Source of the DNA: a virus
Virus record (IMG/VR): IMGVR_UViG_3300025652_000032
Location: 32,001 to 96,000 of that record
DNA length: 64,000 nt
Strand: one strand, 5' to 3'
A model generated the notes under the pieces. The model was not told the DNA's origin and ran no database searches. It saw only the letters and a list, made by a program, of their open reading frames with translations. The position numbers and the translations under genes are program-made. Shown here piece after piece: positions 1 to 42,011 of this stretch (the stretch's first letter is position 1; each line of letters opens with the position of its first letter).

Positions 1-527
1 GCTCCATCGACACGATGTCCGTTTCCATACACGTTGAAGTAACGAAAGGTGTTTACATTGAGATCGTTGCTGTAATACTCACACAATTGTTCAGCACAAT
101 ATTTTGACAGTGCATAGGGATTCAGTGTTGGTTTTAGATGAGAAGACTCACATTGAATTAGGTGATCACACTCATACACGGCAGAGGTAGAGGAAAAAAC
201 AACGCGATCCACTCCGCATTCTTTTGCCGTTTGTAAAACTCTATTTGTCCCTAGAATATTTTGTCTGGTTGTATGAACCGGATCTTTCAGTGAAACCTGA
301 ATGCTTGCTTCTGCTGCCATGTGAAAGATCGTGTCTACATTGTAGCGATCAATAACTTCGGTGAGTAGAGGAACATTGTTGATAGAACCAACATAATTTT
401 TAGCATCTGGGTGCCAAGTTCCGTGAGCGTTCTTGTCCAAACAAACAACTTCTCTTCCCTCAGAAAGAAGAGTCTGGACTAAGTTGCTACCAATAAATCC
501 GGCACCACCTGTAACTAAGTAACTCAT
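1..527 (-). CDS. NAD-dependent epimerase/dehydratase (SDR), truncated by left window edge
   Basis: Translated by hand (missing from the ORF track): MSYLVTGGAGFIGSNLV (GxxGxxG), HMAA, FSSTSAVY, YALSK (YxxxK), FRYFNVYG. Its ATG overlaps the upstream stop (ATGA, 524-527). Confidence 0.9.
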   Translation of the reverse strand, partial: MSYLVTGGAGFIGSNLVQTLLSEGREVVCLDKNAHGTWHPDAKNYVGSINNVPLLTEVIDRYNVDTIFHMAAEASIQVSLKDPVHTTRQNILGTNRVLQTAKECGVDRVVFSSTSAVYECDHLIQCESSHLKPTLNPYALSKYCAEQLCEYYSNDLNVNTFRYFNVYGNGHRVDG

Positions 528-1207
528 TTCGGGCCCTCACAAACGTATGTCACCTTGTAATCAGAAGAAGTTGCAATCTGATCACTGAAACTCTTGTATA
601 CTTTATAATAGAATCCCACCGAGGAGAGAACTGTTTCCAGTTCTTCATTTGTCCATATCTTATGAGTCACTGTATACGGCGTCTCTCGGAAAATTCCATT
701 CAACTTCATCGTGTTGTTGGTGTAGTCAGTTTCCGGGATTAAGGTTAACTCGGGAGTATATACCTCTCGGGGTTCATCCTCAACAAAAGCGTCATGATTA
801 AAACAATCAAATACAAAAATACCGGAAGACTCTAGTTTGAGTGATACTGACTCCACAAAGGATTTGAGTTCTTTCATGTCACGAATGTGATTAATCACAT
901 TGAATAAACTTACCACAAGAGGAACTCTGACACTAATATCAGACACAGTGCCAATGATCAAATGTGGATTGTATTTCTGTAATTTGTCTCTTGCTATTTC
1001 AATCATAGACGAGGAGGGATCTACTCCATGAACTTCATATCCTCTCTTACAAAATTCTTGCAAGTGACTACCAGTTCCACATCCAATATCCAGAACCTTG
1101 GTTTGAACGGGATCAAGATCGATAACATAATCTACCTCACCAGAGTAATCTTTCTGTGAGTGTAAACTATCGTAAATGGAAACTGATATGTTGTTGTACT
1201 CAGACAT
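524..1207 (-). CDS. Class I SAM-dependent methyltransferase, TylM1/DesVI-like (putative amino-sugar N-methyltransferase)
   Basis: Motif I VLDIGCGTGSHL, VDPSSSMIEIA. N-terminal YDSLHSQKDYSGE resembles the YDLxH..KDY..E of sugar N,N-dimethyltransferases. Likely start MSEYN at 1207 (track ORF starts at 1225). Confidence 0.8.
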   Translation of the reverse strand: MSEYNNISVSIYDSLHSQKDYSGEVDYVIDLDPVQTKVLDIGCGTGSHLQEFCKRGYEVHGVDPSSSMIEIARDKLQKYNPHLIIGTVSDISVRVPLVVSLFNVINHIRDMKELKSFVESVSLKLESSGIFVFDCFNHDAFVEDEPREVYTPELTLIPETDYTNNTMKLNGIFRETPYTVTHKIWTNEELETVLSSVGFYYKVYKSFSDQIATSSDYKVTYVCEGPK

Positions 1208-2126
1208 TAGAATATTGATTATCAAACTTAATTACAGAGATTCCTTGTGCCAGTTCGGAGATACCAGAATCCAGATCGATTGTAGTGTCAAACCCAAGAG
1301 AAGCGATCTTATCGTAAGACACAACATAGTCTCTCTTGTCGGCATCCTCGCCAATATCTGCAAGATGTAGGAAGTATGGAACCACCTCGTTAATCTTTTC
1401 GCATACCTCTTTCTTGCTAAAGTTCATCTTATCACTACCGACATTATACACATTACCAATCATCTTGTCAAGATTTTCAAGGGCAAACATGAAAGATCTT
1501 GCGATATCATAAACATGAATAAATGTCCGCATGAAGTGTGATTCATACACAACAATGTATCTGTCTTTCACTGCCTTCTTTGTAAAATCATTCACAAGAA
1601 GATCTAGTCTAAGTCTCGGTGAAAGACCAAAGGCAGTAGCAAACCTATAAGCAACAGCGTTTGAGTTGTTCATAATATACTGCTCTGCTTCTGTTTTTGT
1701 TGTGCCATAAATACTTAACGGATTGAGTGGACTTTCCTCGGTACAGATGCCGTCCACTCTACCATAATTACTTCCAGTAGATCCAAACAGTATGATCTGA
1801 TCGTCGTTCAGCATGTCAACCAAAGACTTAGTTGCCTCTAAATTCACAGCGGTAGTGATCGCATGATCTTTTTCGCAGGCGGGATACCCGACGATCGCAG
1901 CGAGGTGAATTACAACATCCTTACCCTCGACAACAGATCTCAACTTCTCAGTATCTCTAATGTCTCCCTCGACGAGACTGAAGTTTTTGTTCTTAAAGTG
2001 TGGGAACATACTATTCCCACCGAAAAGTAATGCGTCGTAAACACATACTTCATGTCCTGCGGCCAGTAATTCTGGAACTAAAGTGCTTCCAAGATAACCC
2101 GCACCACCCGTCACTAAAATTTTCAT
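1200..2126 (-). CDS. NAD-dependent epimerase/dehydratase (extended SDR)
   Basis: MKILVTGGAGYLGS, HLAAIVG, YGTTK (YxxxK), YRFATAFGLSPRLRLDLLVN. Confidence 0.9.
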   Translation of the reverse strand: MKILVTGGAGYLGSTLVPELLAAGHEVCVYDALLFGGNSMFPHFKNKNFSLVEGDIRDTEKLRSVVEGKDVVIHLAAIVGYPACEKDHAITTAVNLEATKSLVDMLNDDQIILFGSTGSNYGRVDGICTEESPLNPLSIYGTTKTEAEQYIMNNSNAVAYRFATAFGLSPRLRLDLLVNDFTKKAVKDRYIVVYESHFMRTFIHVYDIARSFMFALENLDKMIGNVYNVGSDKMNFSKKEVCEKINEVVPYFLHLADIGEDADKRDYVVSYDKIASLGFDTTIDLDSGISELAQGISVIKFDNQYSNV

Positions 2127-2332
2127 ATTGTTTGCCTTCCCATTTTTATTTTGTTCCAGATTCTTTCGTAAAAATAGTAAACGAAAAATCCGGTAAGATT
2201 CATTAACAATGCGTTCATTAGTGCCTCACTAGAAACACCAGATAATAAAACCAAGTAACTATTCAGTATCGCAACAATCCTCCAAAGGATAGTTTTTGTT
2301 ATACTTCGAGTTTTGGTTTCCTTGAATGACAT
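2123..2332 (-). CDS. DUF2061-like small membrane protein
   Basis: ETKTRSITKTILWRIVA...FYYFYERIWNKIKMGR pattern with two hydrophobic segments; start MSFKE at 2332 (TGATG overlap). Confidence 0.7.
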   Translation of the reverse strand: MSFKETKTRSITKTILWRIVAILNSYLVLLSGVSSEALMNALLMNLTGFFVYYFYERIWNKIKMGRQTI

Positions 2333-2835
2333 CAGCGTCCTATGACCGACCAATCAATAACATATGGATCAATTCTTAAATCGTCATTCATTGCTTCCTC
2401 GAACCGAAGATTGCTGAGTGATGTAAGAACAGTTCTATCTTCAAGACTAATCCAACCATTAGCATACAACGGAGGGACATACAAGACTGCATGATGTCGA
2501 TCACTCATGATAAAAGTCTGAACACTATCTGGATTGTCTTTGGCATACTGGGCAATCTCTTCTCTATCATTTCGATCAGCAACTTCCTCTGGAAGTTTGA
2601 GTGTCTGGAATTTTGCGGCACCACATGCGATAGTAAAAATCTTGGCCTCTAATTTGTGATAGTGCAGTCCCCGGATAACGCCTTTGCCGTAGTCTCCAAC
2701 AACATAACACCTACGAAAAAGTTCGTGATCAATGTCGTCAGTGATCGGTACTAGATAACCCCGATCATCTGATATCGATGGCACCTTTAGTAAAGTTGGT
2801 TCTGTAACACCAGAGTGAATTTTGTACATTATCAA
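2332..2835 (-). CDS. Cupin-fold nucleotide-sugar isomerase/epimerase (RmlC / FdtA-QdtA 3,4-ketoisomerase superfamily)
   Basis: DDRGYL, GVIRGLHYH, LYVPPLYANGW. Start is ATG 2829 or TTG 2835. Confidence 0.8.
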   Translation of the reverse strand: MIMYKIHSGVTEPTLLKVPSISDDRGYLVPITDDIDHELFRRCYVVGDYGKGVIRGLHYHKLEAKIFTIACGAAKFQTLKLPEEVADRNDREEIAQYAKDNPDSVQTFIMSDRHHAVLYVPPLYANGWISLEDRTVLTSLSNLRFEEAMNDDLRIDPYVIDWSVIGR

Positions 2836-3947
2836 TGTCTCCCATAATATTTTTTGATTGTATCACATACATGCTGAACTTGATCTGGTTCCAGTGCCGC
2901 ATATGATGGTAAACAAACTCCTTTGTTATATGCAGTCACTGTATTATCGAAGGAGTATTTTCTATACCTTCTATGCTTTATGTATCTCTTGAAACATGGT
3001 TGCATGTGTAGTGGGTAGAAAAATGTTCTAGGTTCGATTTCCTGTTCACTCATAAAAGACATGAGTTTTTCTGAGGACTCTTCTTTGACTTGTAACACTA
3101 CTCGGAATGGGATGAACGATGTTATGTTTTCGTTTGGTTGTACTACTTCGACTTCATCAACATCACACAGCATCTCGGTATACATCGCATGAACTTTACG
3201 TTTTAAATCAACAATGCGATCAAACTTATTTAACTGTGAAAGACCTAGTGAGGTTTGAAGATCTGTCATTCTAAAATTATATCCAATCTCCGGGTGAATG
3301 AAAGATCCCCTGTCGAGTCTTCCCTGATTTCTCAGGTACTTAAGACTCTCCGCAAACTTTTCATTGTTCGTTGTAACATAACCACCTTCTGCTGTTGTGA
3401 TTGTCTTGTCTGCGAAAAACGAAAAACAAGATATATCACCAAAACTACCACACGGTTGTCCCTTCCACTCGATGCCAAGTGCCTGTGCTGAATCTTCAAT
3501 GAAGATCAACTTATACTTTTCGGCAAAACTTCGAACCTTATCCATGTCACAACAAAACCCATACAAGTGTGCTGGCATAATCGCCTTGGTTCGTCGGGTG
3601 ATTAGTTTGACACATGAGTCTGGATCTAATTGAAAGGTATCTTTGTCTATGTCCGCAAAAACAGGAGTTGCTCCAGTCATCTCAACGGCGTTTGCTGTAG
3701 CGATGAAAGTAAAATCTGGAACAATGACCTCATCACCCTTACCAATACCTGCTGCACGAAGTGCCAAGTAAAGTGCAAGCGTACCATTAGGTGCGAAGGA
3801 ACCATATGAAGTGTTCGTCATTGATCGGAGTCGTTCATCAAACTCCTTAGACTTTGGACCTTCTGTTATCCAATTCATTTCAAAAGATTGTCTTAGTGCC
3901 TCGTAATCTTCCATGTCCACATAAGGCATAAACTGGGGTACTTTCAT
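2832..3947 (-). CDS. DegT/DnrJ/EryC1/StrS PLP-dependent sugar aminotransferase
   Basis: NGTLALYLAL, GDEVIVPDFTFIATANAV, EDSAQALG, SFFADKTITTAEGG (PLP Lys), GYNFRMTDLQ; likely start MKVPQ at 3947. Confidence 0.95.
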   Translation of the reverse strand: MKVPQFMPYVDMEDYEALRQSFEMNWITEGPKSKEFDERLRSMTNTSYGSFAPNGTLALYLALRAAGIGKGDEVIVPDFTFIATANAVEMTGATPVFADIDKDTFQLDPDSCVKLITRRTKAIMPAHLYGFCCDMDKVRSFAEKYKLIFIEDSAQALGIEWKGQPCGSFGDISCFSFFADKTITTAEGGYVTTNNEKFAESLKYLRNQGRLDRGSFIHPEIGYNFRMTDLQTSLGLSQLNKFDRIVDLKRKVHAMYTEMLCDVDEVEVVQPNENITSFIPFRVVLQVKEESSEKLMSFMSEQEIEPRTFFYPLHMQPCFKRYIKHRRYRKYSFDNTVTAYNKGVCLPSYAALEPDQVQHVCDTIKKYYGRH

Positions 3948-3948
3948 T

Positions 3949-4731
3949 TTAAACTCGTCTCCTGTAGTACGAAGTAAATCCATTATCAATCGGTTTGTGT
4001 GTGTAGATTTTTTCCAACCCGGCGATCTCTGCTAGTTTGTCCATCGTATCAATGCTGAAAAAGTATAAGTGTTCGTTTGGGATTATATGTTTCCACAGCA
4101 CCTTTTCTTTTCTATGCGTGTCGCATTCGATATCGTGTGTTCCAATAACGATGATCCCATCATCTTTCAGTCTTTTAGTTTTTTCCTGTAAAAACTTTAT
4201 AGGATCGGATATGTGTTCTATCACATTAAAACTACAGATGATATCAAAGTCTTCGTTATCGTAATCATGCAAGAGTGATCGAGAAAGATTAACTTCATAT
4301 TTATCAACACCGTAGTCAATATCAAACTGGTTGAGATCTATACCATATGCATCGAACCCTGCCTTTTTTGCTGCGTTGACTAAGAATCCCTGACTACAAC
4401 CGACATCTAGAAATTTACCCGAGTGTCTATTTACATTTTTCTGTATGAAAGAAATTCTTTCGTCAGAAATAAACTCGAAGTCATCAACTCTATCCTGTAT
4501 GTCCAATTCACCTACGCTAGTTTGATAGTCTTGCCAGTAGTTGTTTTCATAAACATCAATCATGGACTCCCTAAGATTTCTTGGGTGACAATAAATCAAC
4601 GAACAACAATCACACTTAACGATATCCCGTCGTTCACCAATTTGCTTGTGTGTCGGTATATCATCAAACGAATAAACAGGAGAGAAGTTCTCCGATCCAC
4701 ATAGTAAACATGTATTACTCTCTTCTATCAT
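3949..4731 (-). CDS. Class I SAM methyltransferase with N-terminal Zn-finger (sugar O/C-methyltransferase-like)
   Basis: CLLCGS...CDCC zinc ligands, FLDVGCSQGFL, NVIEHISDP, PNEHLYFF; likely start MIEES at 4731 (ATGA overlap). Confidence 0.85.
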   Translation of the reverse strand: MIEESNTCLLCGSENFSPVYSFDDIPTHKQIGERRDIVKCDCCSLIYCHPRNLRESMIDVYENNYWQDYQTSVGELDIQDRVDDFEFISDERISFIQKNVNRHSGKFLDVGCSQGFLVNAAKKAGFDAYGIDLNQFDIDYGVDKYEVNLSRSLLHDYDNEDFDIICSFNVIEHISDPIKFLQEKTKRLKDDGIIVIGTHDIECDTHRKEKVLWKHIIPNEHLYFFSIDTMDKLAEIAGLEKIYTHKPIDNGFTSYYRRRV

Positions 4732-5600
4732 AGACTGTCTATTGCTTTTTTTATAGTGGGCCACATATTGTATTCGTTTAAGATTAGTTGCCTTGCTTCG
4801 GAAACCGCATCAAGTCTGTCATCATAGTCACTTGGATCATTCACGATATCCAAAAGTCTGTCTATTTCATTGTAGTCATCAACATCAAATCTGTCAAATG
4901 ATTTCTCTGGAAAATATTCAGAATTACCTCCGCCCCAGAAAAAAGGAACAGACCAACACAACATGGCATCAGTGAATTGAGTACCGAAGAAATTTGTAAT
5001 CGTATTTTGATTATCGTATGTCAAACTGTATTTGTAATCCAACAGACCAGTTCTTTTATCATTGTTTTCTAATGCACCATTTGCAAAAGAAACGCCACCA
5101 TATAAGTCTAACTTGTCTGGGTGTCTTTCAATAAACTCACGGGTAAACTTTTTGCGTTTTACATGACCGTAGTTCATCTCTTTGTCGGATAGAATACAGG
5201 CGAAGTTCTTGGTCTTCGTTGGTGGTTCTTGGTTCATCAGTTCATCATAAGTATACCCAATGCCTCCACTGTGAACGCTAGGGTATCGCCACTTCACCCA
5301 TAAATGACCTGTGTCATTCCAGAAGGAGAAATGTCTACAGTCACTTTCGTGGTATCGATTTATTTCATTCGGAGTTAGGGCCTCCCTCGAAAAGTACAGT
5401 CTTTGTTCGGGTTCAAACTTAGACCATAGAGACATATCACACAAGTCTTGCACGATGAGATAATCGGCACTATTTGAATCAAATGTGTATTCAATGTCTT
5501 CCCACACACCCGACGACTCTGGTGTCTGGTGTCTGTAATCTTCTACCATCTTCTCACTGGAAAGTCCCCAGTTCGGGGCAAAATAAATTTTCTTAGTCAC
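4728..5600 (-). CDS. GT10 (fucosyltransferase-like) glycosyltransferase, divergent
   Basis: C-terminal DKRTGLLDYKYSLTYDN...TDAMLCWSVPFFWG matches the GT10 YKFxLxFEN...DA...PIYWG motif; GTG start in GTGA overlap. Confidence 0.7.
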   Translation of the reverse strand: MTKKIYFAPNWGLSSEKMVEDYRHQTPESSGVWEDIEYTFDSNSADYLIVQDLCDMSLWSKFEPEQRLYFSREALTPNEINRYHESDCRHFSFWNDTGHLWVKWRYPSVHSGGIGYTYDELMNQEPPTKTKNFACILSDKEMNYGHVKRKKFTREFIERHPDKLDLYGGVSFANGALENNDKRTGLLDYKYSLTYDNQNTITNFFGTQFTDAMLCWSVPFFWGGGNSEYFPEKSFDRFDVDDYNEIDRLLDIVNDPSDYDDRLDAVSEARQLILNEYNMWPTIKKAIDSL

Positions 5601-6463
5601 ACCATCTCCTCAATCTCAGGAACACTATACAATTCTACTTCGTTTGAATATGGTCCATCCTCTAGAATCTTTTCGTGTAGGTTCTCGCCCTTCTGAAGTC
5701 CTATCGTTTTGATCTTCAATTCCCCATCTGAAGGAAGATATTTGTTTGCCATTGCCTGTAAGAGATCTTCAATTTTCATCGCTTTCATATCCGGACAATA
5801 CGGAGTTGTGTCTGTTGAATTTTCGAGACAAGAGAAAATTAAATCAATGGCCTGTTCGCGGGTCCAGAAAAACCTAGTAGCAGACGGATCGGTTACAATA
5901 ACCTCTTTGTTTTGTGAAAGAAGATCTCTCCATTTACAAAGAACAGAACCAGTGGAGTACAGAACATTCCCATAACGGACAATTCTATAATTTGTGTTTG
6001 GGTTTATTCTGGCATATTCATGGAACAGTCCCTCCATGAGAAGTTTCGTTGCACCGTACATGCCCACGACTTGTGCTGCTTTGTCTGTGCTGATTCCCAG
6101 TACAAAGTCTAAGGATTTTCCTAGAGTTAAATCAAGTAGGTTCATGCTCCCTACCGTATTACTGGCAATACATTCTCGCGTATGGGTTTCCGCCATACCA
6201 ACATGCTTGAATGCTGCTAAATGAAACACACCAGAAACATCTGCAATCGTCTTGTGTAAACAATGGGGATGTGAAATATCACCGGGAACAATTTCTAACC
6301 ACGGGAACTTTTGCTTGGTTTGTACTAAGTTTCCCTCGTTTCGAGATACAGTTACCACATTAGTACAACCGAAATCTTCTAGTCTAGCAAGAAGTGCCTC
6401 ACCAAGAAATCCAGAAGCACCAGTTACCAAATACTTTTTATCAGGACTAATAACACTCATCAT
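5597..6463 (-). CDS. NDP-sugar 4,6-dehydratase (CapD/PseB, Polysacc_synt_2 family)
   Basis: LVTGASGFLG, HLAAFKHV, STDKA, YGATKLLME, VRYGNVLYSTGSV, GLQKGENLHE; likely start 6463. Confidence 0.9.
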   Translation of the reverse strand: MMSVISPDKKYLVTGASGFLGEALLARLEDFGCTNVVTVSRNEGNLVQTKQKFPWLEIVPGDISHPHCLHKTIADVSGVFHLAAFKHVGMAETHTRECIASNTVGSMNLLDLTLGKSLDFVLGISTDKAAQVVGMYGATKLLMEGLFHEYARINPNTNYRIVRYGNVLYSTGSVLCKWRDLLSQNKEVIVTDPSATRFFWTREQAIDLIFSCLENSTDTTPYCPDMKAMKIEDLLQAMANKYLPSDGELKIKTIGLQKGENLHEKILEDGPYSNEVELYSVPEIEEMV

Positions 6464-7257
6464 CAATCTCCATAAATCAAAGTCAACCAATCACGATCAG
6501 TCCACTCTTGTTTAAAATTACCAATTTCTTCAGGTCTATCACCATAAAGTTCTTTTACTTTATTTATATCTTCTTCTCGCATACCAAGAACATTCAATTT
6601 TCCGCGATATGCATTATCACTAATCAATTCAATCTTCTTAACACACCATCGATCGGCCGATCCTAGAATTTTATATCCATCACCCTCTGCTGATCGGCCT
6701 CCTATTATTTCCCAGTCATGTATTGACCAATCCCGTTGTAGATTTTTTAGAAAATATTTTCTGTTCCATATGGAGATTTGTCCTGTTATCCTATAGATAA
6801 ATGAAGTTACAGATCTTTGTCGAAGTTCTAAAATTTTAAAATCACCAAAGTCTTTGTAAACACTCACATCTTCTGGATTTCTGGCGTGTTGAATTGAAGG
6901 TTGCAAGTCTATTCTCCCAACCTTCTCATCATCAATTTCTTTCAATAGAGTTTCGTACACTTCTCGATCAAAAGGTCTTGCCATGTAGTAATCATCAATA
7001 CCAAAAATGAAATGCTCGTCATCGATCGACTCGAAAAAATCTATGATATAATTAGACCAACCCTTTGATCGACCCACTTGTTCTTCTGCCATAGAGATAA
7101 ATTCAAAATTGGAGGGCAGTTCAAAATCAGGTTCCGAAAATCCCAAAACCTTAACTTCGAAATCCTCGCCCCAATACTTGTTGAAAAAATATGCAAATCC
7201 TTCTATTGCAAATAAATGAGGATCACATGTTGCGATGTATACTTTAAGATTTTTCAT
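6463..7257 (-). CDS. Putative GT-A glycosyltransferase
   Basis: VYIATCD start, FIFGIDDYY acidic motif, island context; no family recognised. Confidence 0.5.
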   Translation of the reverse strand: MKNLKVYIATCDPHLFAIEGFAYFFNKYWGEDFEVKVLGFSEPDFELPSNFEFISMAEEQVGRSKGWSNYIIDFFESIDDEHFIFGIDDYYMARPFDREVYETLLKEIDDEKVGRIDLQPSIQHARNPEDVSVYKDFGDFKILELRQRSVTSFIYRITGQISIWNRKYFLKNLQRDWSIHDWEIIGGRSAEGDGYKILGSADRWCVKKIELISDNAYRGKLNVLGMREEDINKVKELYGDRPEEIGNFKQEWTDRDWLTLIYGD

Positions 7258-8498
7258 ATCACTTCCTCCATCAACTGAATGTCCCGAACATCTTTGGGTT
7301 CGTTTCTTTTTTCCTTTAGTTCTCGTATCACACCAAGAGATGCAACTTTAACACCATCATACCAGAAGTGATTCTTTGGGTTGAACAGTATCTCATCTTT
7401 GCCCATTGTATATTTACTCAACTCTTCGTTGTGACTGTGGATCATATGATGGCCTTGAATATCAAGATCACGGTGTAGATAGTCTAGATCTTCTCCCTCT
7501 CGTAAACCATACAAGGAAAGAACAGAACTGGCAGTAACACAATAGTTCTCTGGATCTAAGTTGTTATCTCGGATGTAGTTTCTGTAATAGTCAAACATAC
7601 ACTGAAAAGAATTGTAATGAACATGCTTTGCATTGTTCATGTGATGAATACTATTTTCGTTATAGTATAGTCTTGCAATTCGCATCGTCTCTTCGTGTGT
7701 GTCGTTGATATGACACGAATGCTTTCCTATACCGAAGATGTTTCGGATAGATTCTTTCAACTGAACCATGTCTACAGACTCATGTGGTACAATCAAGAAA
7801 GAGAGAATGGGTGCAGTTGTGGTAAAACAAAGTTCTGCCTTGCGGGCAAACCCAGCAAAGTTTTGAGTCCATCCCAATCCCCAATCTTCGCCCAGATATA
7901 TCTGTCGGATGAGATTAAGAGGCGCATTGTTTTTCCAACCGAAAGACTTCACATAGACAACATCAGAAGTCTTGTTTAGCAGTTCCCATGCTGATTGAAT
8001 CTTTTCATTGTCGTGTGTCACGGAGGGGAACAAAGTGACAACTAATGTATTCGGAACCAGTCTTACATACTCAGTTGCCATCGCATCAAGATTAAACGTA
8101 GACAAACCCCTAGATGCAAACATACTGCTACTGCAATCTAATTGTCCTTCGTTTTCCGTTGCTTCGTGTGTATCAACTTCTTTGTCGTATAGTATAGATG
8201 CTGCAACTCTATGTGAACCATTTATCAGATAGTTCTCATAAACTGGTAGAGTTCCTTTGGTCGAATCAAACCCATCACTGGAAATTGAATCGAGTATGCC
8301 ATCGAAAGTAGATTTGAAACTCTCGAAAGTATTCTTGTTGGAGTTGTCTAATTCATCGAAACTGTTCCATGCATTTAGGTGTGATGCATATACATCCTCA
8401 CCAAAGGACGTATCATAACCTGCATCTCTATACCTTGCGTATAAGTGCTTTGCTGGAATGTCGAATCGATTATTCTTTAGAAGAGTCAGTGGGTTCAT
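7254..8498 (-). CDS. Multidomain protein: ParB/Srx-like + NDP-kinase-like + nucleotidyltransferase-like
   Basis: LINGSHRVAA; IRNIFGIGKHSCHINDTHEE; SSVLSLYGLREGEDLDYLH...KRNEPKDVRDI. Confidence 0.5.
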   Translation of the reverse strand: MNPLTLLKNNRFDIPAKHLYARYRDAGYDTSFGEDVYASHLNAWNSFDELDNSNKNTFESFKSTFDGILDSISSDGFDSTKGTLPVYENYLINGSHRVAASILYDKEVDTHEATENEGQLDCSSSMFASRGLSTFNLDAMATEYVRLVPNTLVVTLFPSVTHDNEKIQSAWELLNKTSDVVYVKSFGWKNNAPLNLIRQIYLGEDWGLGWTQNFAGFARKAELCFTTTAPILSFLIVPHESVDMVQLKESIRNIFGIGKHSCHINDTHEETMRIARLYYNENSIHHMNNAKHVHYNSFQCMFDYYRNYIRDNNLDPENYCVTASSVLSLYGLREGEDLDYLHRDLDIQGHHMIHSHNEELSKYTMGKDEILFNPKNHFWYDGVKVASLGVIRELKEKRNEPKDVRDIQLMEEVI

Positions 8499-9229
8499 AA
8501 CGAATTTAGTTTTTCATATGGTTGCCGTTCCTTCAGCAACTTTTCAATTCTCAATTGTTCATGTGGTACTTTACGGAAATCCGAATTTTCATTTTGTTCA
8601 TTGTAAACGTAAAGGGGTTCTGGGATGAAAACAAATCTGTCTCCAGACATCTCAAGCATTGGCCACATGAAGGTCAAATCACCAGCGGCCTTAAACCACT
8701 CTCCGTCTATGTCAATGAAGTCATCAGTATTTATGTTCAATACCAACTCCCGACGAAATGTTCTCAAGTGTGTTGCTCTCCAACGATCTTTACGGAATGC
8801 ATTATTGTTTACAATATCATCATGATAACGATCGTGACCCCAAACAGCAGTTCCAGAACTTGTCTTATACATCGAACCATATGACATCCACACATCTTCA
8901 GTGTAGTACCTATCAAGTGTTCCTAGAACATTGTCGTGAGGTAACCAGTCATCAAAGTCCAGAGTTACGATGATAGATCCTTCTCTGGCCATTTCAGATC
9001 CCTCGTATACATTTTGTGTTTGATACTTTCTAGTTTCGTTACGAACCACTTTCAGGTTTTCATATTTGTCTTGCTGCTCAAGAAGATATTCGTGAGTTCC
9101 ATCATCAGTCTGTGCATCGATTGCAATAACATCAAAGTTATCGTGCTTCTGTAGCAAGGCAGATTTTAGGGATTCTTCAATCCACGAACGGGAGTTGTGT
9201 CCCATCATCAAAATAGTGTAGTGATTCAT
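8495..9229 (-). CDS. GT2 family glycosyltransferase
   Basis: WIEESLKSALLQ, IDAQTDDGT, IIVTLDFDDWL, GDLTFMWPMLE, PLYVYN. Confidence 0.85.
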   Translation of the reverse strand: MNHYTILMMGHNSRSWIEESLKSALLQKHDNFDVIAIDAQTDDGTHEYLLEQQDKYENLKVVRNETRKYQTQNVYEGSEMAREGSIIVTLDFDDWLPHDNVLGTLDRYYTEDVWMSYGSMYKTSSGTAVWGHDRYHDDIVNNNAFRKDRWRATHLRTFRRELVLNINTDDFIDIDGEWFKAAGDLTFMWPMLEMSGDRFVFIPEPLYVYNEQNENSDFRKVPHEQLRIEKLLKERQPYEKLNSL

Positions 9230-9963
9230 AGTAACTCCAACAGTTCTTTTATTGCCATGCTGTATACGCTATAGGGGCGGATAGAGTGACAATCAATATA
9301 CTCCCCCGATTGTACCATACTTTTGTCGTATGTCCAGTTAGTTCTATCAATTCTTTTATTTAACGCCATCATAGGCACTGGTTGACAAACGCCTCCTCCG
9401 TTATCACGAAACTCACAGATCTTTCGGGAAGAATGAACTTCATCAATATTCCACTTTGACAGTGGTGCTTCATCAGGCCAATCGTTAGGTCGGTGTTCGA
9501 AGTTCTCGTCAACAGAATCAGAAACCTTACGACAGTAATCGGGAAACGAGTTCTCAATCTCTAGAACATCTGCAAACACTTTACCCTTTGCCATATTGTA
9601 ACAGATGGGGAAGTAGTCGGCGTTGCTGTTTAAATTTGTCCAAACACACTGCGAATATTCTACGATGGCGGCCTGCCAATACTTCTTCGACATGGGGAAC
9701 ATATCAATGTCACTTGTTATCCATGTTGTATTTGGTTCTTTATGTGTGTACCACATTCGAGAGAGTTGTGCCTGAGTATGAATAGGAACTGTTTCGTCTA
9801 CGGGCATGGAATGAACCTGTCCATGTTCGGCGGACGGTTCTTTCTCCCCGACATGAACAAGGACAGGTTCGATTCCCATTTTCTCTTTCCACACCCACGA
9901 CACCAACGGCCAGAAGTCTAGGTAGTATGGGTTATCGTCACACGACATGATCACTTTTGGCAT
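9226..9963 (-). CDS. Putative GT-A glycosyltransferase
   Basis: SCDDNPYYLDFWP, ITSDIDMFP (DxD), YPICY-like segment; island context. Confidence 0.6.
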   Translation of the reverse strand: MPKVIMSCDDNPYYLDFWPLVSWVWKEKMGIEPVLVHVGEKEPSAEHGQVHSMPVDETVPIHTQAQLSRMWYTHKEPNTTWITSDIDMFPMSKKYWQAAIVEYSQCVWTNLNSNADYFPICYNMAKGKVFADVLEIENSFPDYCRKVSDSVDENFEHRPNDWPDEAPLSKWNIDEVHSSRKICEFRDNGGGVCQPVPMMALNKRIDRTNWTYDKSMVQSGEYIDCHSIRPYSVYSMAIKELLELL

Positions 9964-10631
9964 AGTGCTTCCTCCAACACTTCTAGATCATGCTTCCAGT
10001 TGCCTCCCGGTTTGTCATTCTCGTCGAAACATTGTCCAACGAAATCAACACCGTCACTGGGTCGTTCTGTGATAGGGAAGTCTGTGTCTGTAAAGAACGG
10101 ATCGTGTACCATGCAGTTCTTCAGAGATAGAGGATGCACATGCTTCCAAAGGAACCACTGATCCTGACTCTTCTCATCTGTTGCATTGAACTCTTCCATC
10201 ATTCGAATGATGTTTGGAACTGCTCCGCCGCGGCAACCCCACATACCACCGAGCATCGGAACGCCGTGGTATGGGTGATCTCGCATGATATGAAACTGTT
10301 CACCGGAGTCAACCCACTCGTTGATGGCGGCAACTTCTCTCTCACAGAACCGACAGTCAGTATCACGCGAAATCATATGTGTGATACTGGTGTCTTCTGC
10401 CGGTTCGAATCGCCAGAACATACCCAGAGATCCGGGTTCTTCTGTTCTCATTTCAGTTTGTACGTTGGGAAATAACTCAAGACTTCGAACGATGGCAGAG
10501 TCTACAGTATCGGCAATATAGAACCTACATGTCCATTCGGGTAGCATCTCCATCGCCTGTTTTGCATTTTTAATCGCGCCAATCGTGTATACTGGATTGT
10601 CGCCCCATAATGAATAAGTAATCAATTTCAC
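9951..10631 (-). CDS. Putative glycosyltransferase
   Basis: KLITYSLWGDNPVY, FWRF, ISRDTDCR (DxD), FHIMRDHPYH, LGGMWG; likely GTG start at 10631 (GTGA overlap). Confidence 0.65.
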   Translation of the reverse strand: MKLITYSLWGDNPVYTIGAIKNAKQAMEMLPEWTCRFYIADTVDSAIVRSLELFPNVQTEMRTEEPGSLGMFWRFEPAEDTSITHMISRDTDCRFCEREVAAINEWVDSGEQFHIMRDHPYHGVPMLGGMWGCRGGAVPNIIRMMEEFNATDEKSQDQWFLWKHVHPLSLKNCMVHDPFFTDTDFPITERPSDGVDFVGQCFDENDKPGGNWKHDLEVLEEALCQK

Positions 10632-11260
10632 GTTACGATAGACTCCGTTTCCTCTGAGGACCACTGATATACATGAAGGAAGTCATCTAGAGCAACGCTC
10701 TCTTCCACCTTCGGGTACAATCGAGACAACCAATCAATGTCTTCACAGGACTGACCAGTCTGTGGATGATATACACTCCTGAATGGTTCTGATTGTGCAA
10801 GTGTTCTCTTCCACACACAGAAATGATAAGGAGGTCGTAGTGTATCTTTGAATCCCTGTGAATAACCATCAGCAACAGGCACAACTGGTTCGTGTGGATT
10901 GCCCATTTTCAAGAACACCCTAGCATGAACACCGTTGAGGTAGCAGTCTTGATTGAATGAAATGACATCAGCGTTGGGATTTTTCTCTATAGTTTCCGTC
11001 AACCGTTCGATGTAATTGTCTGCTACATCATCGTCGTCATCCAACCATGCGATGTGAGTTCCTCTTGCCATCCGGAGAAGTTCATTCCTCTTCTCCCAGA
11101 TGTGCAGGGACTTATTATCGATAACACAAATGACCTCTACATCTTCTCGATCACCAATCTGACCGAGGAGTTTGTCTTGGAGGACTCTGTACTTGTCAAG
11201 TCTCGACGGGATCGAGAGCATCAGTATACTAAATTTTATATCTTCTTTGTTCTTAGGCAT
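10628..11260 (-). CDS. GT2 family glycosyltransferase
   Basis: FSILMLSIPSR, KRNELLRMARGTHIAWLDDDDD, EDIDW. Confidence 0.85.
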   Translation of the reverse strand: MPKNKEDIKFSILMLSIPSRLDKYRVLQDKLLGQIGDREDVEVICVIDNKSLHIWEKRNELLRMARGTHIAWLDDDDDVADNYIERLTETIEKNPNADVISFNQDCYLNGVHARVFLKMGNPHEPVVPVADGYSQGFKDTLRPPYHFCVWKRTLAQSEPFRSVYHPQTGQSCEDIDWLSRLYPKVEESVALDDFLHVYQWSSEETESIVT

Positions 11261-11966
11261 GATTAAGTCTCTTCGCTACTTCCTGAACATCAAACTGAAG
11301 TTCACTTTTTCTTTTGTTGAAAACGCCGCCGTCCTTCTCGTACATCTCAGGACTTTCTTGCATCGTGTGTAGTTCGTCGGATTCTTCATGACCACCGGGA
11401 ACCCACTCATGTTTGATGATACACGTTTCACACACGGCGAATCGACCAAGCATCATACAGAGTTCTGTCATCTCAGTGTCACAATAAATGCTGGTGTAGT
11501 CTGGATGATACCAATGTCCAATTGCATCGTATAGTTTCTTTCCCATGACAGGCAGTGTGCAAAGAGCATCATTCCGAAGTCCGTCATTGAACTTCACTGC
11601 ACCATCAAATTCAGGGAAGGTTCCCTCGAACACCTGAGCAATGATATCATCATATTCTTTCAGTTGAGGGATCATATCATCCGATGCCAAAAGTCCCACA
11701 TCGAAAGTTTCGCCTTCCATGTTTGCATTACATGCTTCAATTTTGGTTTTAGAGTGACCATAGTATGCAGTTAAGTTTACGCCACTTTCCTGTAGGGACG
11801 CAAACCAGTTTCGGACTTCGGGGTTGTTCATTGTCTCGTCATCTTCGTCGCATGTAATAACAAAACGTACATCGTGCTTACCAGATAGGTAATCGATGTA
11901 CATTTCTAAAACTTGTTTGAATTTGTCAGGACGGGAACGGGTGGGAAACTTAATCAGTAGTCGCAT
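11253..11966 (-). CDS. Putative GT-A glycosyltransferase
   Basis: LIKFPTRSRP, CDEDD, LLASDDMIP, YCDTE; first gene of the island. Confidence 0.7.
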   Translation of the reverse strand: MRLLIKFPTRSRPDKFKQVLEMYIDYLSGKHDVRFVITCDEDDETMNNPEVRNWFASLQESGVNLTAYYGHSKTKIEACNANMEGETFDVGLLASDDMIPQLKEYDDIIAQVFEGTFPEFDGAVKFNDGLRNDALCTLPVMGKKLYDAIGHWYHPDYTSIYCDTEMTELCMMLGRFAVCETCIIKHEWVPGGHEESDELHTMQESPEMYEKDGGVFNKRKSELQFDVQEVAKRLNHA

Positions 11967-11984
11967 AATATAAATCCTTTTATT

Positions 11985-12407
11985 CTATTTAGTCCGACCT
12001 ATATGGTACTTGGGACAAAGTTCCCAATCACCTTTTTCTTTGTAAGGAAGAATCTTTATCTGGCTGATTGGAACTGCTGGTTCCTCTGCTTTGGCAGGTA
12101 AGACTATCTCTAATAGTTCCCATTCTTCCAGCAATTTAGCAATCGTATTTCTTCTTCCGATATCGTTTTCTGCTATGTCAGTTGGCAGGCCGTCCAGTGC
12201 AAAGAGTTCTTTGAAGTGGACGATGTAATACTTACCTCGTTTATGTAAGATATGGCATGACTGATATAACTTCTTTTCTTTTCTGGACGATACACCAATT
12301 CGCGTGAGCGTCTCTTTAATCTTCAAAAAATCATCTGGTTCATATAAGGTGATTTCGAGTAAATCACTTACTTCAATATTCGATTGTCCCATTTGTATAA
12401 ACTCCAT
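11985..12407 (-). CDS. regA: Translational repressor RegA
   Basis: DDFLKIKETLTRIGV, LYQSCHILHKRGKYYIVHFKELFALDG. Confidence 0.97.
   Translation of the reverse strand: MEFIQMGQSNIEVSDLLEITLYEPDDFLKIKETLTRIGVSSRKEKKLYQSCHILHKRGKYYIVHFKELFALDGLPTDIAENDIGRRNTIAKLLEEWELLEIVLPAKAEEPAVPISQIKILPYKEKGDWELCPKYHIGRTK
11986..11992 (-). promoter_or_regulatory. Late-promoter-like element CTAAATA heading the glycan island
   Basis: ACTAAATAG spans the last codons and stop of regA; an identical word lies at 49370-49376 before a tail-fibre gene. Confidence 0.55.
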
Positions 12408-37018: not shown

Positions 37019-37867
37019 TCAATATGTATTACCTTGCGAGTCGATCGGTGGTCCAGCAGTCGATCCGGTTGCACCGAAGACATAGATGTTGGTTTCTGCT
37101 GTATACCCAGTGACAGTACCTGTTGCACCAGAAAGTCCGACATCAACGCGGGACAACGCACCTGTCGCGCCCTGAGAGGTTGCCCCAGTGGGTCCGTAAA
37201 TCCAATCGTTTAGTCCATCGTTGAAGAATACAGTCTTTGTTTGTCGGATAACCGAAGAGTTCTTCGTTGGACCAAAGCAGAAAGATTTTGCTGTGAAGTC
37301 GAAGTTTATCTGGATGTTTCTTCTCGAATCAAAATCACCCTCGTAGTCCTCGACAATAGACACATTATTGAGAATAATAGGAACATCTAATTTGTCATAT
37401 AAATCTGTGAAGTTGATTGAGACTGTAAACTCTGGAGTAAAGTAAGGCAGAATCTGTTCCATGATCTGCAAACCATCATCCATGTTTCGTGTAAACGCAG
37501 AGACAGCAAAGTTAAAGTTATATGGAACTTCCGCAAACGCATAATCGAGAGTAGATCCGGCACCAGTTTGAGTTGACTGTCTGCTCTTCGATAATGTGTT
37601 TCTTTTCCGTGTTGGATCATATGATACATCAGTGATCTCAAATCCAATTCTTGGTAAAGTGATTTCCGCCTTAGCAGAATCGCTCAAAGAATTGAAGTTG
37701 TTTAGTCGTGTGAGAAATTTTTCCTTTGGTCCGTATGATAAAGGAACCCGGATACGTTCTACTTCTGCACCTGAAGAATCACTCCGTGCAATAACAATGT
37801 CATTGAATAACGATCCGAACGCCACTACGGTTTTTCTTACGGAACTATTATAGAAATGTGTAAACAT
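37019..37867 (-). CDS. gp15: Tail terminator / sheath stabiliser
   Basis: VVAFGSLFNDI, VPLSYGPKEKF, LPRIGFEI, QILPYFTPEF. Confidence 0.95.
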   Translation of the reverse strand: MFTHFYNSSVRKTVVAFGSLFNDIVIARSDSSGAEVERIRVPLSYGPKEKFLTRLNNFNSLSDSAKAEITLPRIGFEITDVSYDPTRKRNTLSKSRQSTQTGAGSTLDYAFAEVPYNFNFAVSAFTRNMDDGLQIMEQILPYFTPEFTVSINFTDLYDKLDVPIILNNVSIVEDYEGDFDSRRNIQINFDFTAKSFCFGPTKNSSVIRQTKTVFFNDGLNDWIYGPTGATSQGATGALSRVDVGLSGATGTVTGYTAETNIYVFGATGSTAGPPIDSQGNTY

Positions 37868-39944: not shown

Positions 39945-42011
39945 TCATTTTGTACTAAATCCATAACCACTACCAGTAGAAGTTGCAGGTATAAGTGATA
40001 CATATGTGCCTTTACTCAGGACTAGTTCTGTTCCGTTTGCAAGGGTAGTTACTCTTGCATCAAGAATTGTTTTGCCGTCTGTAAGTGCTGTTATGATATT
40101 AATTTTGTCTACTCCTGACTTCTCTTCTGATTCGTTCCGTCTTTTATATTCTGTAAGATCTCCCCAGAGACGGATGACTTCTGTTCCTGTAAACTTAACG
40201 GGATCACCTTCTGCATTTTCGATAGAGTATGAACCACAAGATCCACTCGAAGTTCCTGCATTAATCGAAGTAACCAATTCACCCAATGGGCCCATTGCTT
40301 CTGGTCTAGGAACAAACGAGAATGAACCACCACCTGTTGATCCCGTGTGTGTTTCACCGGCGGGACCAAAGTATCCTGTCGTGCCACTAAATCCACCACA
40401 AGAACCATCCCCAAAGAATAATGTACAAAACCCATTATCCGAAGATCCGGTAGGACCTGGGTTGTGTGTCTGTCCATAAATTCTTGCGTATGTAAGATCT
40501 TCTGTATCAGACTCTAGTGTATTTCTAATGATACCTTGGTATGTGCTGATATCCACTATGTCAAGACCACCACTTCCTCCAGCACCAGAGTTTCCTCCTG
40601 TTGATTGTACTGCATAGTGAGCAGCACATGACATTCCCGTAATGAATCCACCGCCGATAGTTGGATAATCATAACCACCAGTTCCGGTTGTGTTTCTCAA
40701 GAACAATCTCTTCTTGGTAGTATTCCAGATAGTAACGATACCTTCATAGAACTCTCTATTGTTCAAATGTGGATTATTACCAGACTGAACATCAAACAAT
40801 GAACACCCAGATGTTCCTCTTGATGGAATGTAATATGCATATCCTGGTCGCCAAATTTCGTCACCAAGGCCTGTTGTCGCTCCCGTAAGAGCAGTACCCT
40901 TTTGGTATGTCGTATTGAGAATCGCAGCACTTGCTCCAGCAGTTAATACTGTTCCGGATGTACAACCAATCACAAATTCATCTATAAATCCACCCCAGTT
41001 GTCACGATGATCGTCTGATCCGTTTGGATCGAACTTACCACCAAACACAAACGGGTGTGGGTTTAACTTGATACCACCACCGTTTGTTGATTGGTTTACA
41101 GTTCGCACTCCGTTGACGTATGCTGTGACGGTTGATCCTGCGGCAGAGTTTCTGTACGCTACTGCAATATGATGCCACTTTTGAAATGGAATGTTCGCAC
41201 CACTTGTTGGTCCTGTTGCATTGTTTGTCACTGTGGTGATTGTTACATTATTCACCAATCCGGTGACTGATGTATCAGCAGCATCAGACCAATGGAATTT
41301 AACGGATGATCCTTCTTGATTGAGCAAGAAACAGTCACCACTACCACCAGTAAAACCTCCAGTTGGTCCTGTTGTTCCGCTTTCTGGTCCAGTGTATCCC
41401 TGAGTGGCCGAGGTATCAAGTTTTGCCAAGATCGTACCATTAGGTAAACTCGGGGATTGGAACCAAACCCACCCACTAAGTAACCAGTTGTCTAGGGTTG
41501 ATCCGTTATGACCACCTCTGGATGGAAGGACTATTTGTCCACCGTTTCCGGAAAAGTAAATACTTTCTTTTGCACAACTAAGTGTAACACCATTCCATTT
41601 GCCCTGCGATCCAGAAGATGGTTGACCATACTCCGGTTTGAATGTTCTTGGCGGAAATTCGAGGACTCTCGATCTGGTGTGGGCCCGAATCTTGTCAAGT
41701 TCTACTCGTTCGTCGTGAGAAAATTCACCACACCCAACTATTGCATTGTAATACCAACCATCGTCACCACAACCACCAGAGGAAGCAGATCGCTGTGCTG
41801 GAATTTTAACTGTTCCTCTGGGATCGAATCCTTGAACTTCCTCGTTGTTTGTGTTTAGTTTGTCGAACAACTCCTTATCCATAGTGAAAATCTCATACGC
41901 TCCTTTGGAACGATAGCGTGATGAATTATCATTTTCTTTTAATATGTCTACGATTCTACCATCTGTAGAATCGATGACTATTTGGATTTTGGTGTTGTTG
42001 GTTATCGACAT
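39945..42011 (-). CDS. Virion protein with LamG/concanavalin-like lectin domain
   Basis: KWHHIAVAY...AYVNG...FVFGG...GFIDEFVI; rich in G-x-T/S/C motifs. Confidence 0.75.
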   Translation of the reverse strand: MSITNNTKIQIVIDSTDGRIVDILKENDNSSRYRSKGAYEIFTMDKELFDKLNTNNEEVQGFDPRGTVKIPAQRSASSGGCGDDGWYYNAIVGCGEFSHDERVELDKIRAHTRSRVLEFPPRTFKPEYGQPSSGSQGKWNGVTLSCAKESIYFSGNGGQIVLPSRGGHNGSTLDNWLLSGWVWFQSPSLPNGTILAKLDTSATQGYTGPESGTTGPTGGFTGGSGDCFLLNQEGSSVKFHWSDAADTSVTGLVNNVTITTVTNNATGPTSGANIPFQKWHHIAVAYRNSAAGSTVTAYVNGVRTVNQSTNGGGIKLNPHPFVFGGKFDPNGSDDHRDNWGGFIDEFVIGCTSGTVLTAGASAAILNTTYQKGTALTGATTGLGDEIWRPGYAYYIPSRGTSGCSLFDVQSGNNPHLNNREFYEGIVTIWNTTKKRLFLRNTTGTGGYDYPTIGGGFITGMSCAAHYAVQSTGGNSGAGGSGGLDIVDISTYQGIIRNTLESDTEDLTYARIYGQTHNPGPTGSSDNGFCTLFFGDGSCGGFSGTTGYFGPAGETHTGSTGGGSFSFVPRPEAMGPLGELVTSINAGTSSGSCGSYSIENAEGDPVKFTGTEVIRLWGDLTEYKRRNESEEKSGVDKINIITALTDGKTILDARVTTLANGTELVLSKGTYVSLIPATSTGSGYGFSTK

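Follow-up and report, generated by a model that had tools for sequence, protein, structure and literature searches.

What use would a marine phage have for 17 genes of sugar synthesis and transfer, run together in a single block among its replication genes? The locus that raises this question lies at the left end of a 64,000-nucleotide stretch of viral DNA (the window), which comprises bases 32001-96000 of the linear, 128,029-bp IMG/VR record IMGVR_UViG_3300025652_000032, estimated to be 71% complete. Here, an island of 17 genes and ~13.6 kb is inserted between regA and dut/gp43. Its left end extends 1.6 kb beyond the window, and its last gene encodes a glycosyltransferase in which a family 2 glycosyltransferase (GT2) domain is followed by tetratricopeptide repeats (TPRs). 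On evidence that is computational throughout, we believe that the island is probably a cytoplasmic O-glycosylation system for a collagen-like fibre of the virion. A preliminary description of the window had put forward virion proteins in general as the acceptor of the island's sugars. We would narrow that claim to one likely acceptor, the phage's collagen-like (GNT)n fibre, perhaps joined by its 154-aa, Gly/Thr-rich partner.

The argument begins with the GT2-TPR enzyme, which we call the anchor. It is a 419-aa protein (L003:14390-15649, minus strand, outside the window), 91-93% identical in the relatives L006-L008, with an N-terminal GT-A domain (GT2, PF00535) and C-terminal Pfam matches to TPRs. 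Its best non-designed matches in the PDB by phmmer were GmaR, the O-linked N-acetylglucosamine (O-GlcNAc) transferase of Listeria flagellin, and the enzymes ThuS and SunS. An AlphaFold2 (AF2) model built with 22 homologues reached a pLDDT of 91.5, and the top six Foldseek matches to it were all ThuS/SunS structures (PDB 7msn, 7msp, 7msk), aligned over ~400 columns at E ~5e-14 with TM scores of 0.54-0.65 and 16-19% identity. Wall-polymer GT2 enzymes (TarS, RmlT) reached just 1e-5 in the same search. The family alignment contains a DADD motif whose first three residues, D101, A102, and D103, never vary and whose fourth, D104, shows 90% conservation, along with an invariant H151-E152 pair. The modelled fold supports a SunS/ThuS-type architecture, that of protein-directed glycosyltransferases.

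Homologues of the anchor are numerous in marine data, with 2971 matches, the top 120 of which have E values < 1e-147, and they occur in at least 574 IMG/VR stretches. Among phage records, the only matches are to Tunturiibacter phage Tunturi_5, to four huge phages that are uncultured, and to a handful of short Listeria, Enterococcus, and faecal-phage records without annotation; the cultured cyanophages and pelagiphages of the phage collection yielded no detectable homologue. Homologues were also observed on two giant-virus contigs from metagenome-assembled genomes (L082, L089), and two viral contigs that lack T4 markers (L012:10001-17808 and L013) encode three tandem GT2-TPR paralogues with 33-37% identity to the query. 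The C-terminal ~50 residues of the phage proteins are predicted to form a long helix, which leads into a tail rich in Lys and Arg (…KKGYKKRKK); tblastn matches of bacterial homologues mostly stop short of this tail, at around query residue 372-380. Nucleic-acid binding, capsid binding, and dimerisation are possibilities for its purpose.

What such an enzyme might modify is suggested by the genes that accompany it. The flanks of GT2-TPR homologues were scanned for ORFs of at least 150 aa containing (G-x-y) runs of at least 8. A collagen-like ORF was found in 56 of 85 viral loci, always on the same strand as the transferase gene, downstream of it in 53 instances, and at a median gap of 198 bp. 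The collagen-like neighbours are often rich in Gly-x-Thr. Bacterial homologues have similar company: 47 of 80 loci contain a collagen-like ORF (median gap, 510 bp), and Thr occupies at least 30% of the Y positions in 41. Moreover, five bacterial genomes, 3.6-10.3 Mb in size, have collagen matches at just one to three places each, one of which is always beside the transferase gene, making chance adjacency very unlikely. Pairs of this kind are present in Bacillus marasmi and many other bacteria. Acinetobacter bohemicus has a 1806-aa protein with collagen, RTX, and Big segments beside a TolC-like gene, while the neighbour in Flagellimonas is a 1905-aa collagen protein. The Testudinibacter homologue adjoins a YadA-type trimeric autotransporter adhesin.

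Relatives of the phage display a recurrent order of genes, in which a short intergenic region separates GT2-TPR from the gene for a protein of 143-154 aa that starts with M-[PA]-A-G-x-[YF]-[DN]-I, and a collagen-like fibre comes next. The intergenic region before this fibre operon contains TATAAATA or CTAAATA in several of the relatives' loci, with CTAAATA replacing TATAAATA in some. The phage itself encodes orthologues of the pair that lies directly 3′ of GT2-TPR in its relatives, namely a 154-aa G/T-rich protein (L003:3753-4217, minus strand), whose full length aligns with the relatives' small protein at 41% identity, and an 876-aa (GNT)n collagen-like fibre protein (L003:1126-3756, minus strand) that shares both collagen and non-collagen segments with the relatives' fibres. 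Four to five copies of a 'EASADVTDATNV…SIADVKALDQSVV' module accompany the (GNT)n repeats in the fibre, and CATAAATA-N19-ATG stands ahead of the pair. Outside its collagen segments, the fibre resembles gp54 of Roseobacter phage CRP-207, encoded between coat and tail genes. In the isolate Tunturi_5, 3.7 kb separate the GT2-TPR homologue (gp35) from gp29, a protein with GPT repeats that is annotated as a tail fiber protein.

The motif G-x-[TSC]-G was also seen more often than shuffling would predict in three other proteins of this genome, a 688-aa LamG-type protein (window 39945-42011; 15 versus 3.4 expected) and two smaller structural proteins of 282 aa (window 37019-37867; 5 versus 0.4) and 311 aa (G000 120314-121249; 6 versus 0.3). 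Enrichment extends to the collagen fibre and its 154-aa partner, and the motif is absent from non-structural proteins. Such enrichment could reflect Gly/Thr-rich repeats that undergo no modification whatsoever, or it could mark further acceptor sites.

The genomic setting shows which parts of the island are constant and which are exchanged. The source is an uncultured marine T4-like myovirus, with markers that include regA, the clamp loader genes gp62/gp44, a family-B DNA polymerase, UvsX, a gp41-like helicase, and ThyX. Its closest cultured relatives are cyanomyoviruses, to which the polymerase is 53-55% identical and the regA-gp44 DNA ~66% identical; the island itself had no megablast match among 50,697 phage records. 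All long ORFs of the window are on the minus strand. Past the left edge, the end of a 293-aa short-chain dehydrogenase/reductase (SDR) is followed by the 419-aa anchor, dUTPase, DUF1599, and DNA polymerase (gp43), and then by a glutamine-synthetase-like gene, UvsX, helicase, ThyX, and finally the 154-aa ORF and the 876-aa collagen-like protein. The glutamine-synthetase-like gene (Gln-synt_C, E 3e-19; L003:9963-11069, minus strand), between the DNA polymerase gene and uvsX, is kept in both near and distant relatives.

Across 42 T4-like loci, the GT2-TPR gene, which is conserved throughout a large clade of marine T4-like phages, sits between regA and dut/DUF1599/gp43. In nine of these loci it begins 28-49 bp after regA, with no sugar genes between. 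Others have 1.5-9.5 kb of intervening genes within the flanks that were fetched, as compared to ~13.6 kb in this phage and ~17.5 kb in a near-identical relative, G011. The comparison with G011 is instructive. Its regA and gp43 are 95% and 97% identical to those of this phage, and its DNA aligns over window positions 12453-9222 (89.5%) and from 527 leftwards (90.3%) only. The first four genes of the island and the last two (SDR and GT2-TPR) are thus kept, while an 8.7-kb middle in this phage corresponds to 12.6 kb of unrelated genes in G011, among them those for a GDP-mannose 4,6-dehydratase, a C-methyltransferase, a sulfotransferase, a dehydroquinate-synthase-like enzyme, and an SDR. Cassette exchange between conserved flanks is the pattern of O-antigen and capsule serotype loci. 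Among 149 cassette ORFs from the T4-like loci, the commonest Pfam families are SDR epimerases/dehydratases, DegT, methyltransferases, GT47-like and DXD transferases, UDP-glucose dehydrogenase, and NeuB; no initiating polyprenyl-phosphate transferase, flippase, polymerase, ligase, or ABC exporter figures among the 25 commonest. Two or more hydrophobic segments were found in 0 of 295 cassette ORFs from the 42 loci.

A precedent for the proposed activity exists in Clostridioides difficile, where SgtA, a 358-aa GT-A plus TPR enzyme, is encoded immediately upstream of bclA3 (PMC7157674). In vitro, SgtA modifies Thr of the GPT collagen repeats with beta-O-GlcNAc, and BclA3 is no longer glycosylated once SgtA is lost (PMC7157674). 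The phage system resembles this pair in having a soluble GT-A plus TPR enzyme of a family that is genetically paired with Gly-x-Thr-rich collagen-like proteins. It differs in being viral and part of a T4-like genome, in the extra C-terminal helix and Lys-rich tail of its enzyme, and in the tie between that enzyme and a large, recombination-swapped cassette, with the candidate acceptor gene 10.6 kb off. By analogy with SgtA acting on BclA3, GT2-TPR would prime Thr residues of the 876-aa (GNT)n fibre, and perhaps of the 154-aa G/T-rich partner. The conserved transferases would then extend a core glycan, to which the swappable cassette would add an outer, strain-specific part. A methylated 4-amino-4,6-dideoxy-hexose is a probable constituent of this outer part, as is a fucose-like sugar, and the whole could be produced by the cassette's PseB-like dehydratase, aminotransferase, cupin, SDR, two methyltransferases, GT2 with its kinase-like/nucleotidyltransferase partner, and GT10-like transferase. 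The end product, as we envision it, would be a serotype-like glycan coat on the virion fibre.

The genes available for such a pathway can be followed from regA leftwards, all of them on the minus strand. Sixteen ORFs of one direction span window positions 3-11966, in agreement with an initial count of 16 co-directional genes with overlapping or abutting junctions. When the longest ORFs are considered, each internal junction overlaps by 4-41 nt, and eight of the junctions are 4-nt ATGA, GTGA, or TTGA sequences. The sole gap, of 18 nt, is at the head of the island, between the regA stop codon and the first ATG. The upstream flank is the regA translational repressor gene itself (11985-12407; PF01818, E 3e-44). 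The conserved 5′ block then opens with a 237-aa glycosyltransferase-like protein (11253-11966; phrog_14945 'glycosyltransferase', E 8.8e-15; 94% identical in G011), whose homologues come after regA in loci L009, L014, and L059 and whose profile matched nothing in the PDB. Next are a 210-aa GT2 glycosyltransferase (10628-11260; PF00535, E 4e-8; phrog_8858, E 7e-28; 95% identical in G011) and a possible GT-A transferase of 237 aa with an invariant RDxD motif (9951-10664; 96% identical in G011). The profile of the latter gave one weak PDB match, to the PBCV-1 glycosyltransferase A64R (E 0.15), which serves as a lead. The fourth gene of the block encodes a 245-aa protein (9226-9963; 89% identical in G011) that scored 0.94 to GT8/Nucleotid_trans clusters in an Atlas feature search, with few shared features; it had no match in Pfam or, by profile, in the PDB, and a GT8/nucleotide-diphospho-sugar transferase is likewise a lead.

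The variable cassette begins with a 244-aa GT2 glycosyltransferase (8495-9229; PF00535, E 5e-17) that has no counterpart in G011. Directly downstream of it is its apparent partner, a 414-aa protein (7254-8498) whose AF2 model (pLDDT 94.7) could be interpreted by structure alignment. Residues 123-281 align with nucleoside diphosphate kinase (NDK) at VIA-align Z scores of 10-12 and include an invariant H263..D266, and residues 293-414 resemble a pol-beta-type nucleotidyltransferase (Z 7-9 to MenT, LnuA, and ANT(2″)), with G331..D337xD339. Many relatives of ~670 aa bear GT2 Pfam domains. The matches to these relatives cover 98-100% of the 414-aa query, so their GT2 part lies outside the matched region; in this phage, GT2 is the separate gene directly upstream. 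The 414-aa protein was accordingly rejected as a glycosyltransferase in favour of the NDK-like plus nucleotidyltransferase-fold model, and it may have a role in making or regenerating the nucleotide-sugar donor beside the transferase. Its family is without a Pfam model, phmmer against the PDB returned noise, and the Atlas search yielded unnamed viral clusters. Below it is a 264-aa protein (6463-7257) with homologues in L018 (83%) and L023. This protein, the 414-aa protein, and the last two genes of the 5′ block matched nothing in PHROGs, Pfam, or NCBIfam, even at E 10. Profile-profile comparison, run with shallow profiles, detected no relationship of the small unassigned proteins to one another or to the GT2-TPR family.

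The rest of the cassette is more readily named. It consists of a PseB/CapD-type UDP-N-acetylhexosamine 4,6-dehydratase of 297 aa (5597-6490; PF02719, E 6e-58; TIGR03589 PseB, E 1e-46, under the curated cut-off); a GT10-like, alpha-1,3-fucosyltransferase-like glycosyltransferase of 290 aa (4728-5600), for which a profile built from relatives matched Helicobacter pylori FucT (5zoi/2nzw, E 5.6e-15) and FUT9 (E 9e-10) in the PDB; an S-adenosylmethionine (SAM) methyltransferase of 271 aa (3949-4764; PF13489, E 3e-21); a DegT/PseC/LegC-type sugar aminotransferase of 385 aa (2832-3989; PF01041, E 6e-110; TIGR04181, E 2e-83, and TIGR03588, E 3e-80, both under cut-off); a weakly matched RmlC/FdtA-like cupin of 167 aa (2332-2835; PF00908, E 3e-7; PF05523, E 7e-6); a small DUF2061 protein with one predicted membrane segment (2123-2353; PF09834, E 1e-7); a GalE-like SDR epimerase/reductase of 308 aa (1200-2126; PF01370, E 1e-34); and a second SAM methyltransferase, of 233 aa (524-1225; PF13649, E 2e-13). 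The conserved 3′ block opens at 1-527 with the first 175 aa of the 293-aa GalE-like SDR, assigned by a hidden Markov model (HMM) match and 90-92% identical in L006-L008, which crosses the left edge.

Much of the preliminary description's inventory is borne out by this survey: HMM matches back both SDRs, the 4,6-dehydratase, the aminotransferase, both methyltransferases, and, weakly, the cupin. Its count of about seven glycosyltransferases stands in part, with four supported (8495-9229, 10628-11260, 11253-11966, and 4728-5600), two possible, and one unassigned. It had also described a soluble, cytoplasmic pathway, with no flippase, polymerase, or ligase in the visible part. This agrees with the island, in which single hydrophobic segments occur in DUF2061 and one methyltransferase and no polytopic protein is encoded, and with the relatives' cassettes; the continuation beyond the left edge is likewise without a flippase or ligase. 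A hidden Wzy or flippase among the unassigned ORFs was considered and ruled out by hydrophobicity.

Less straightforward is when the island is expressed. The late-promoter-like motif CTAAATA, noted earlier at the island head and before another gene, is present at both places. At the head (11986-11992, minus strand, read directly from the sequence), it overlaps the regA stop codon and stands 19 nt before the first island ATG, in a sequence that differs at one base in G011; the second copy precedes the gene that starts at 49346 by 23 nt. Late-type motifs of the form [TC]ATAAATA (TATAAATA, CATAAATA) stand before gp23 and other structural genes. CTAAATA has no overall excess in the window (4 versus 7.7 expected), and in L037 and L042 the copy before GT2-TPR corresponds to the regA codons Pro-Lys-Tyr. 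In the 128-kb record, three of five coding-strand copies lie 19-38 nt before starts, positions that make up ~3% of the sequence, and the same bias is seen for TATAAATA (4/7) and CATAAATA (3/5). At the island head, with its overlap of the regA stop codon, the motif could be a chance 7-mer, a reading that we do not fully accept because of this bias to positions just upstream of starts. The interval between regA and the island has no terminator-like site on the coding strand, which argues against a purely late programme. Furthermore, a perfect sigma-70-type promoter, TTGACA-17-TATAAT, occurs at 1471-1443 (minus strand) inside an SDR gene, upstream of the methyltransferase, the 293-aa SDR, and GT2-TPR. 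A second perfect TTGACA-17-TATAAT was observed at 16368-16340 (minus strand) in the clamp-gene region.

Several of these observations weigh against a fibre-directed system. Given its position in the replication module and the internal sigma-70-type promoter, the island may be expressed early. The fibre gene is non-adjacent, ~10.6 kb downstream of the island past dut, gp43, uvsX, gp41, and thyX, and about one-third of the homologue loci have no collagen gene in their flanks. The acceptor residue is uncertain as well, because the neighbouring collagen is almost devoid of Thr at Y positions in 24 of the 56 viral loci. The likeness to SgtA and BclA3 draws on the published domain description of SgtA rather than on sequence comparison, and the NCBIfam SunS model TIGR04195 scores the anchor at 36.4 bits against a 350-bit cut-off, the enzyme being a distant structural relative of SunS and no equivalog. 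It is adjacency that links the variable cassette to GT2-TPR, and it is equally possible that the soluble transferases could act on host undecaprenyl-linked intermediates, followed by host export. Support for the fibre reading comes from sequence, fold, and neighbourhood, and sugar on the fibre is a prediction.

Host export leads to the usual reading of the so-called lipopolysaccharide (LPS) genes of marine T4-like phages, including pelagimyophages and cyanomyoviruses (PMC7029224; PMC12801897). The island would in that case alter the O-chain or capsule of the host by way of its lipid carrier, flippase, and ligase, and the purpose would be to block superinfection or to change recognition by grazers. 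The O-antigen-like content (PseB-like dehydratase, DegT, SDRs, GT2, and GT10-like transferase), a strain-level cassette swap typical of O-antigen and capsule loci, and the position among early/middle genes with a sigma-70-type promoter all fit such remodelling. We nevertheless judge it unlikely here, as an initiating phosphoglycosyl transferase, flippase, polymerase, ligase, and ABC exporter are missing from both the island and the 295 cassette ORFs of its relatives, the protein-type anchor and the collagen neighbourhood of its family are left unexplained, and the anchor occurs in nine loci without any sugar genes. A protein target other than the virion, such as a secreted, glycocin-like peptide or a host flagellin, pilin, or adhesin, would accommodate the anchor's closest solved structures (the glycocin enzymes SunS and ThuS), its best natural sequence match in the PDB (GmaR), and the bacterial homologue next to a YadA-type autotransporter. 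It is improbable all the same: no gene for a small Cys-rich peptide, ABC exporter, or thiol-disulfide partner is found in the island or the minimal loci, glycocin precursor, export, and processing genes are likewise missing from the island, its flanks, and the minimal regA-GT-dut loci, and the recurrent neighbour in phages is a fibre operon behind a late promoter.

The sugars might instead be destined for a modified base of the phage DNA, as a defence against restriction. DNA glycosylation is known in T4-like phages (PMC13326640), with glucosyl-hydroxymethylcytosine in T4 and arabinosyl-5-hydroxycytosine in RB69 as examples, and the island lies beside dut, thyX, and DUF1599, the last a weak match (E 7e-4) to 'nucleotide modification associated domain 1'. 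The GT10-like profile touches T4 beta-glucosyltransferase weakly (E 0.01), and the C-terminal tail of the phage GT2-TPR proteins is rich in Lys and Arg. Hypermodification is very improbable, however. A ThyA-family hydroxymethylase/hydroxylase (PF00303) is absent from the 128-kb record, itself 71% complete; the fold and neighbourhood of the anchor point to proteins; and AGCT occurs 0 times in the whole 128,029-bp record versus 125 expected from trinucleotides. Absence of AGCT suggests restriction acting on unprotected DNA, with strong selection by an AluI-type system in the host. GTAC, GCGC, and ACGT are mildly depleted in the same record. Glycosylation of the collagen-like fibre is the reading that we favour.

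Virion glycosylation is known in mycobacteriophages, chloroviruses, and mimiviruses, and the glycans of mycobacteriophages are reportedly attached to capsid and tail-tube proteins. The island would share with these viruses a virus-encoded, cytoplasmic glycosylation of structural proteins, a subject on which PMC12801897 cites Freeman et al. 2023, whereas the enzyme families and acceptors differ, and we know of no swappable cassette between conserved blocks reported for any of the three. Mimivirus also has collagen-like proteins and a collagen-modifying glucosyltransferase, L230, that acts on hydroxylysine (PMC9614988). The cassette's predicted methylated 4-amino-4,6-dideoxy sugar recalls the anthrose borne by the O-glycans of Bacillus anthracis BclA (PMC9614988). 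The likeness to SunS and ThuS extends over the whole length of the fold, GT-A followed by a TPR-like helical domain, but in place of a small peptide the phage enzyme probably modifies a large fibre protein, and no glycocin precursor or exporter is nearby. O-antigen and capsule loci that depend on Wzx/Wzy or ABC systems have in common with the island their nucleotide-sugar genes and several strain-variable glycosyltransferases, while the island is without their membrane machinery; lacking multi-spanning proteins, it has no GtrA, GtrB, or type-specific Gtr of the kind used in GtrABC serotype conversion. Finally, the 'LPS / cell-wall' clusters of marine T4-like phages (P-SSM2, S-SCSM1, S-SCSM2R, and pelagimyophages) likewise combine glycosyltransferases and nucleotide-sugar enzymes in hypervariable regions (PMC7029224; PMC12801897). 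Published descriptions place these clusters mostly in or near a tail-fibre 'host recognition cluster' and interpret them as modifying the host O-chain, whereas the present island occupies the regA-gp43 interval and is anchored by GT2-TPR.

Virion glycosylation as such and the enzyme-substrate logic of SgtA and BclA3 are already known; a search of the literature turned up no account, for tailed phages, of a module in which GT2-TPR glycosylates a collagen fibre. It is tempting to suggest, as a tentative generalization that may well prove wrong, that members of this clade differ in 'glycotype': SgtA/SunS-like priming and core transferases would act on collagen fibres, recombination would swap rare-sugar cassettes (for amino-dideoxyhexoses, C-methyl and sulfated sugars, and nonulosonic acids) between conserved flanks, and the GT2-TPR/collagen pair would be a widespread and largely unrecognised module for glycosylating surface fibres in bacteria and giant viruses. 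The sugar clusters of marine T4-like phages have long been catalogued and mostly read, without test, as modifiers of host LPS. The island offers a testable pair, anchor enzyme and G-x-T collagen fibre, together with an isolate, Tunturi_5, that has the same pair. If the fibre is glycosylated, swapping at the level of strains would imply diversifying selection on the phage's own surface, with a bearing on adsorption, host range, stickiness of the particle, and grazing in the ocean. The neighbourhood of GT2-TPR and collagen also predicts glycosylated, collagen-like surface fibres in Streptomyces, Chlamydiae, Acinetobacter, Bacillus, and other bacteria. If glycotypes are real, phage fibres would be antigenically and adhesively diverse, much as O-antigens make bacteria, and many of the 'LPS genes' of marine phages would have to be reread as directed at the virion.

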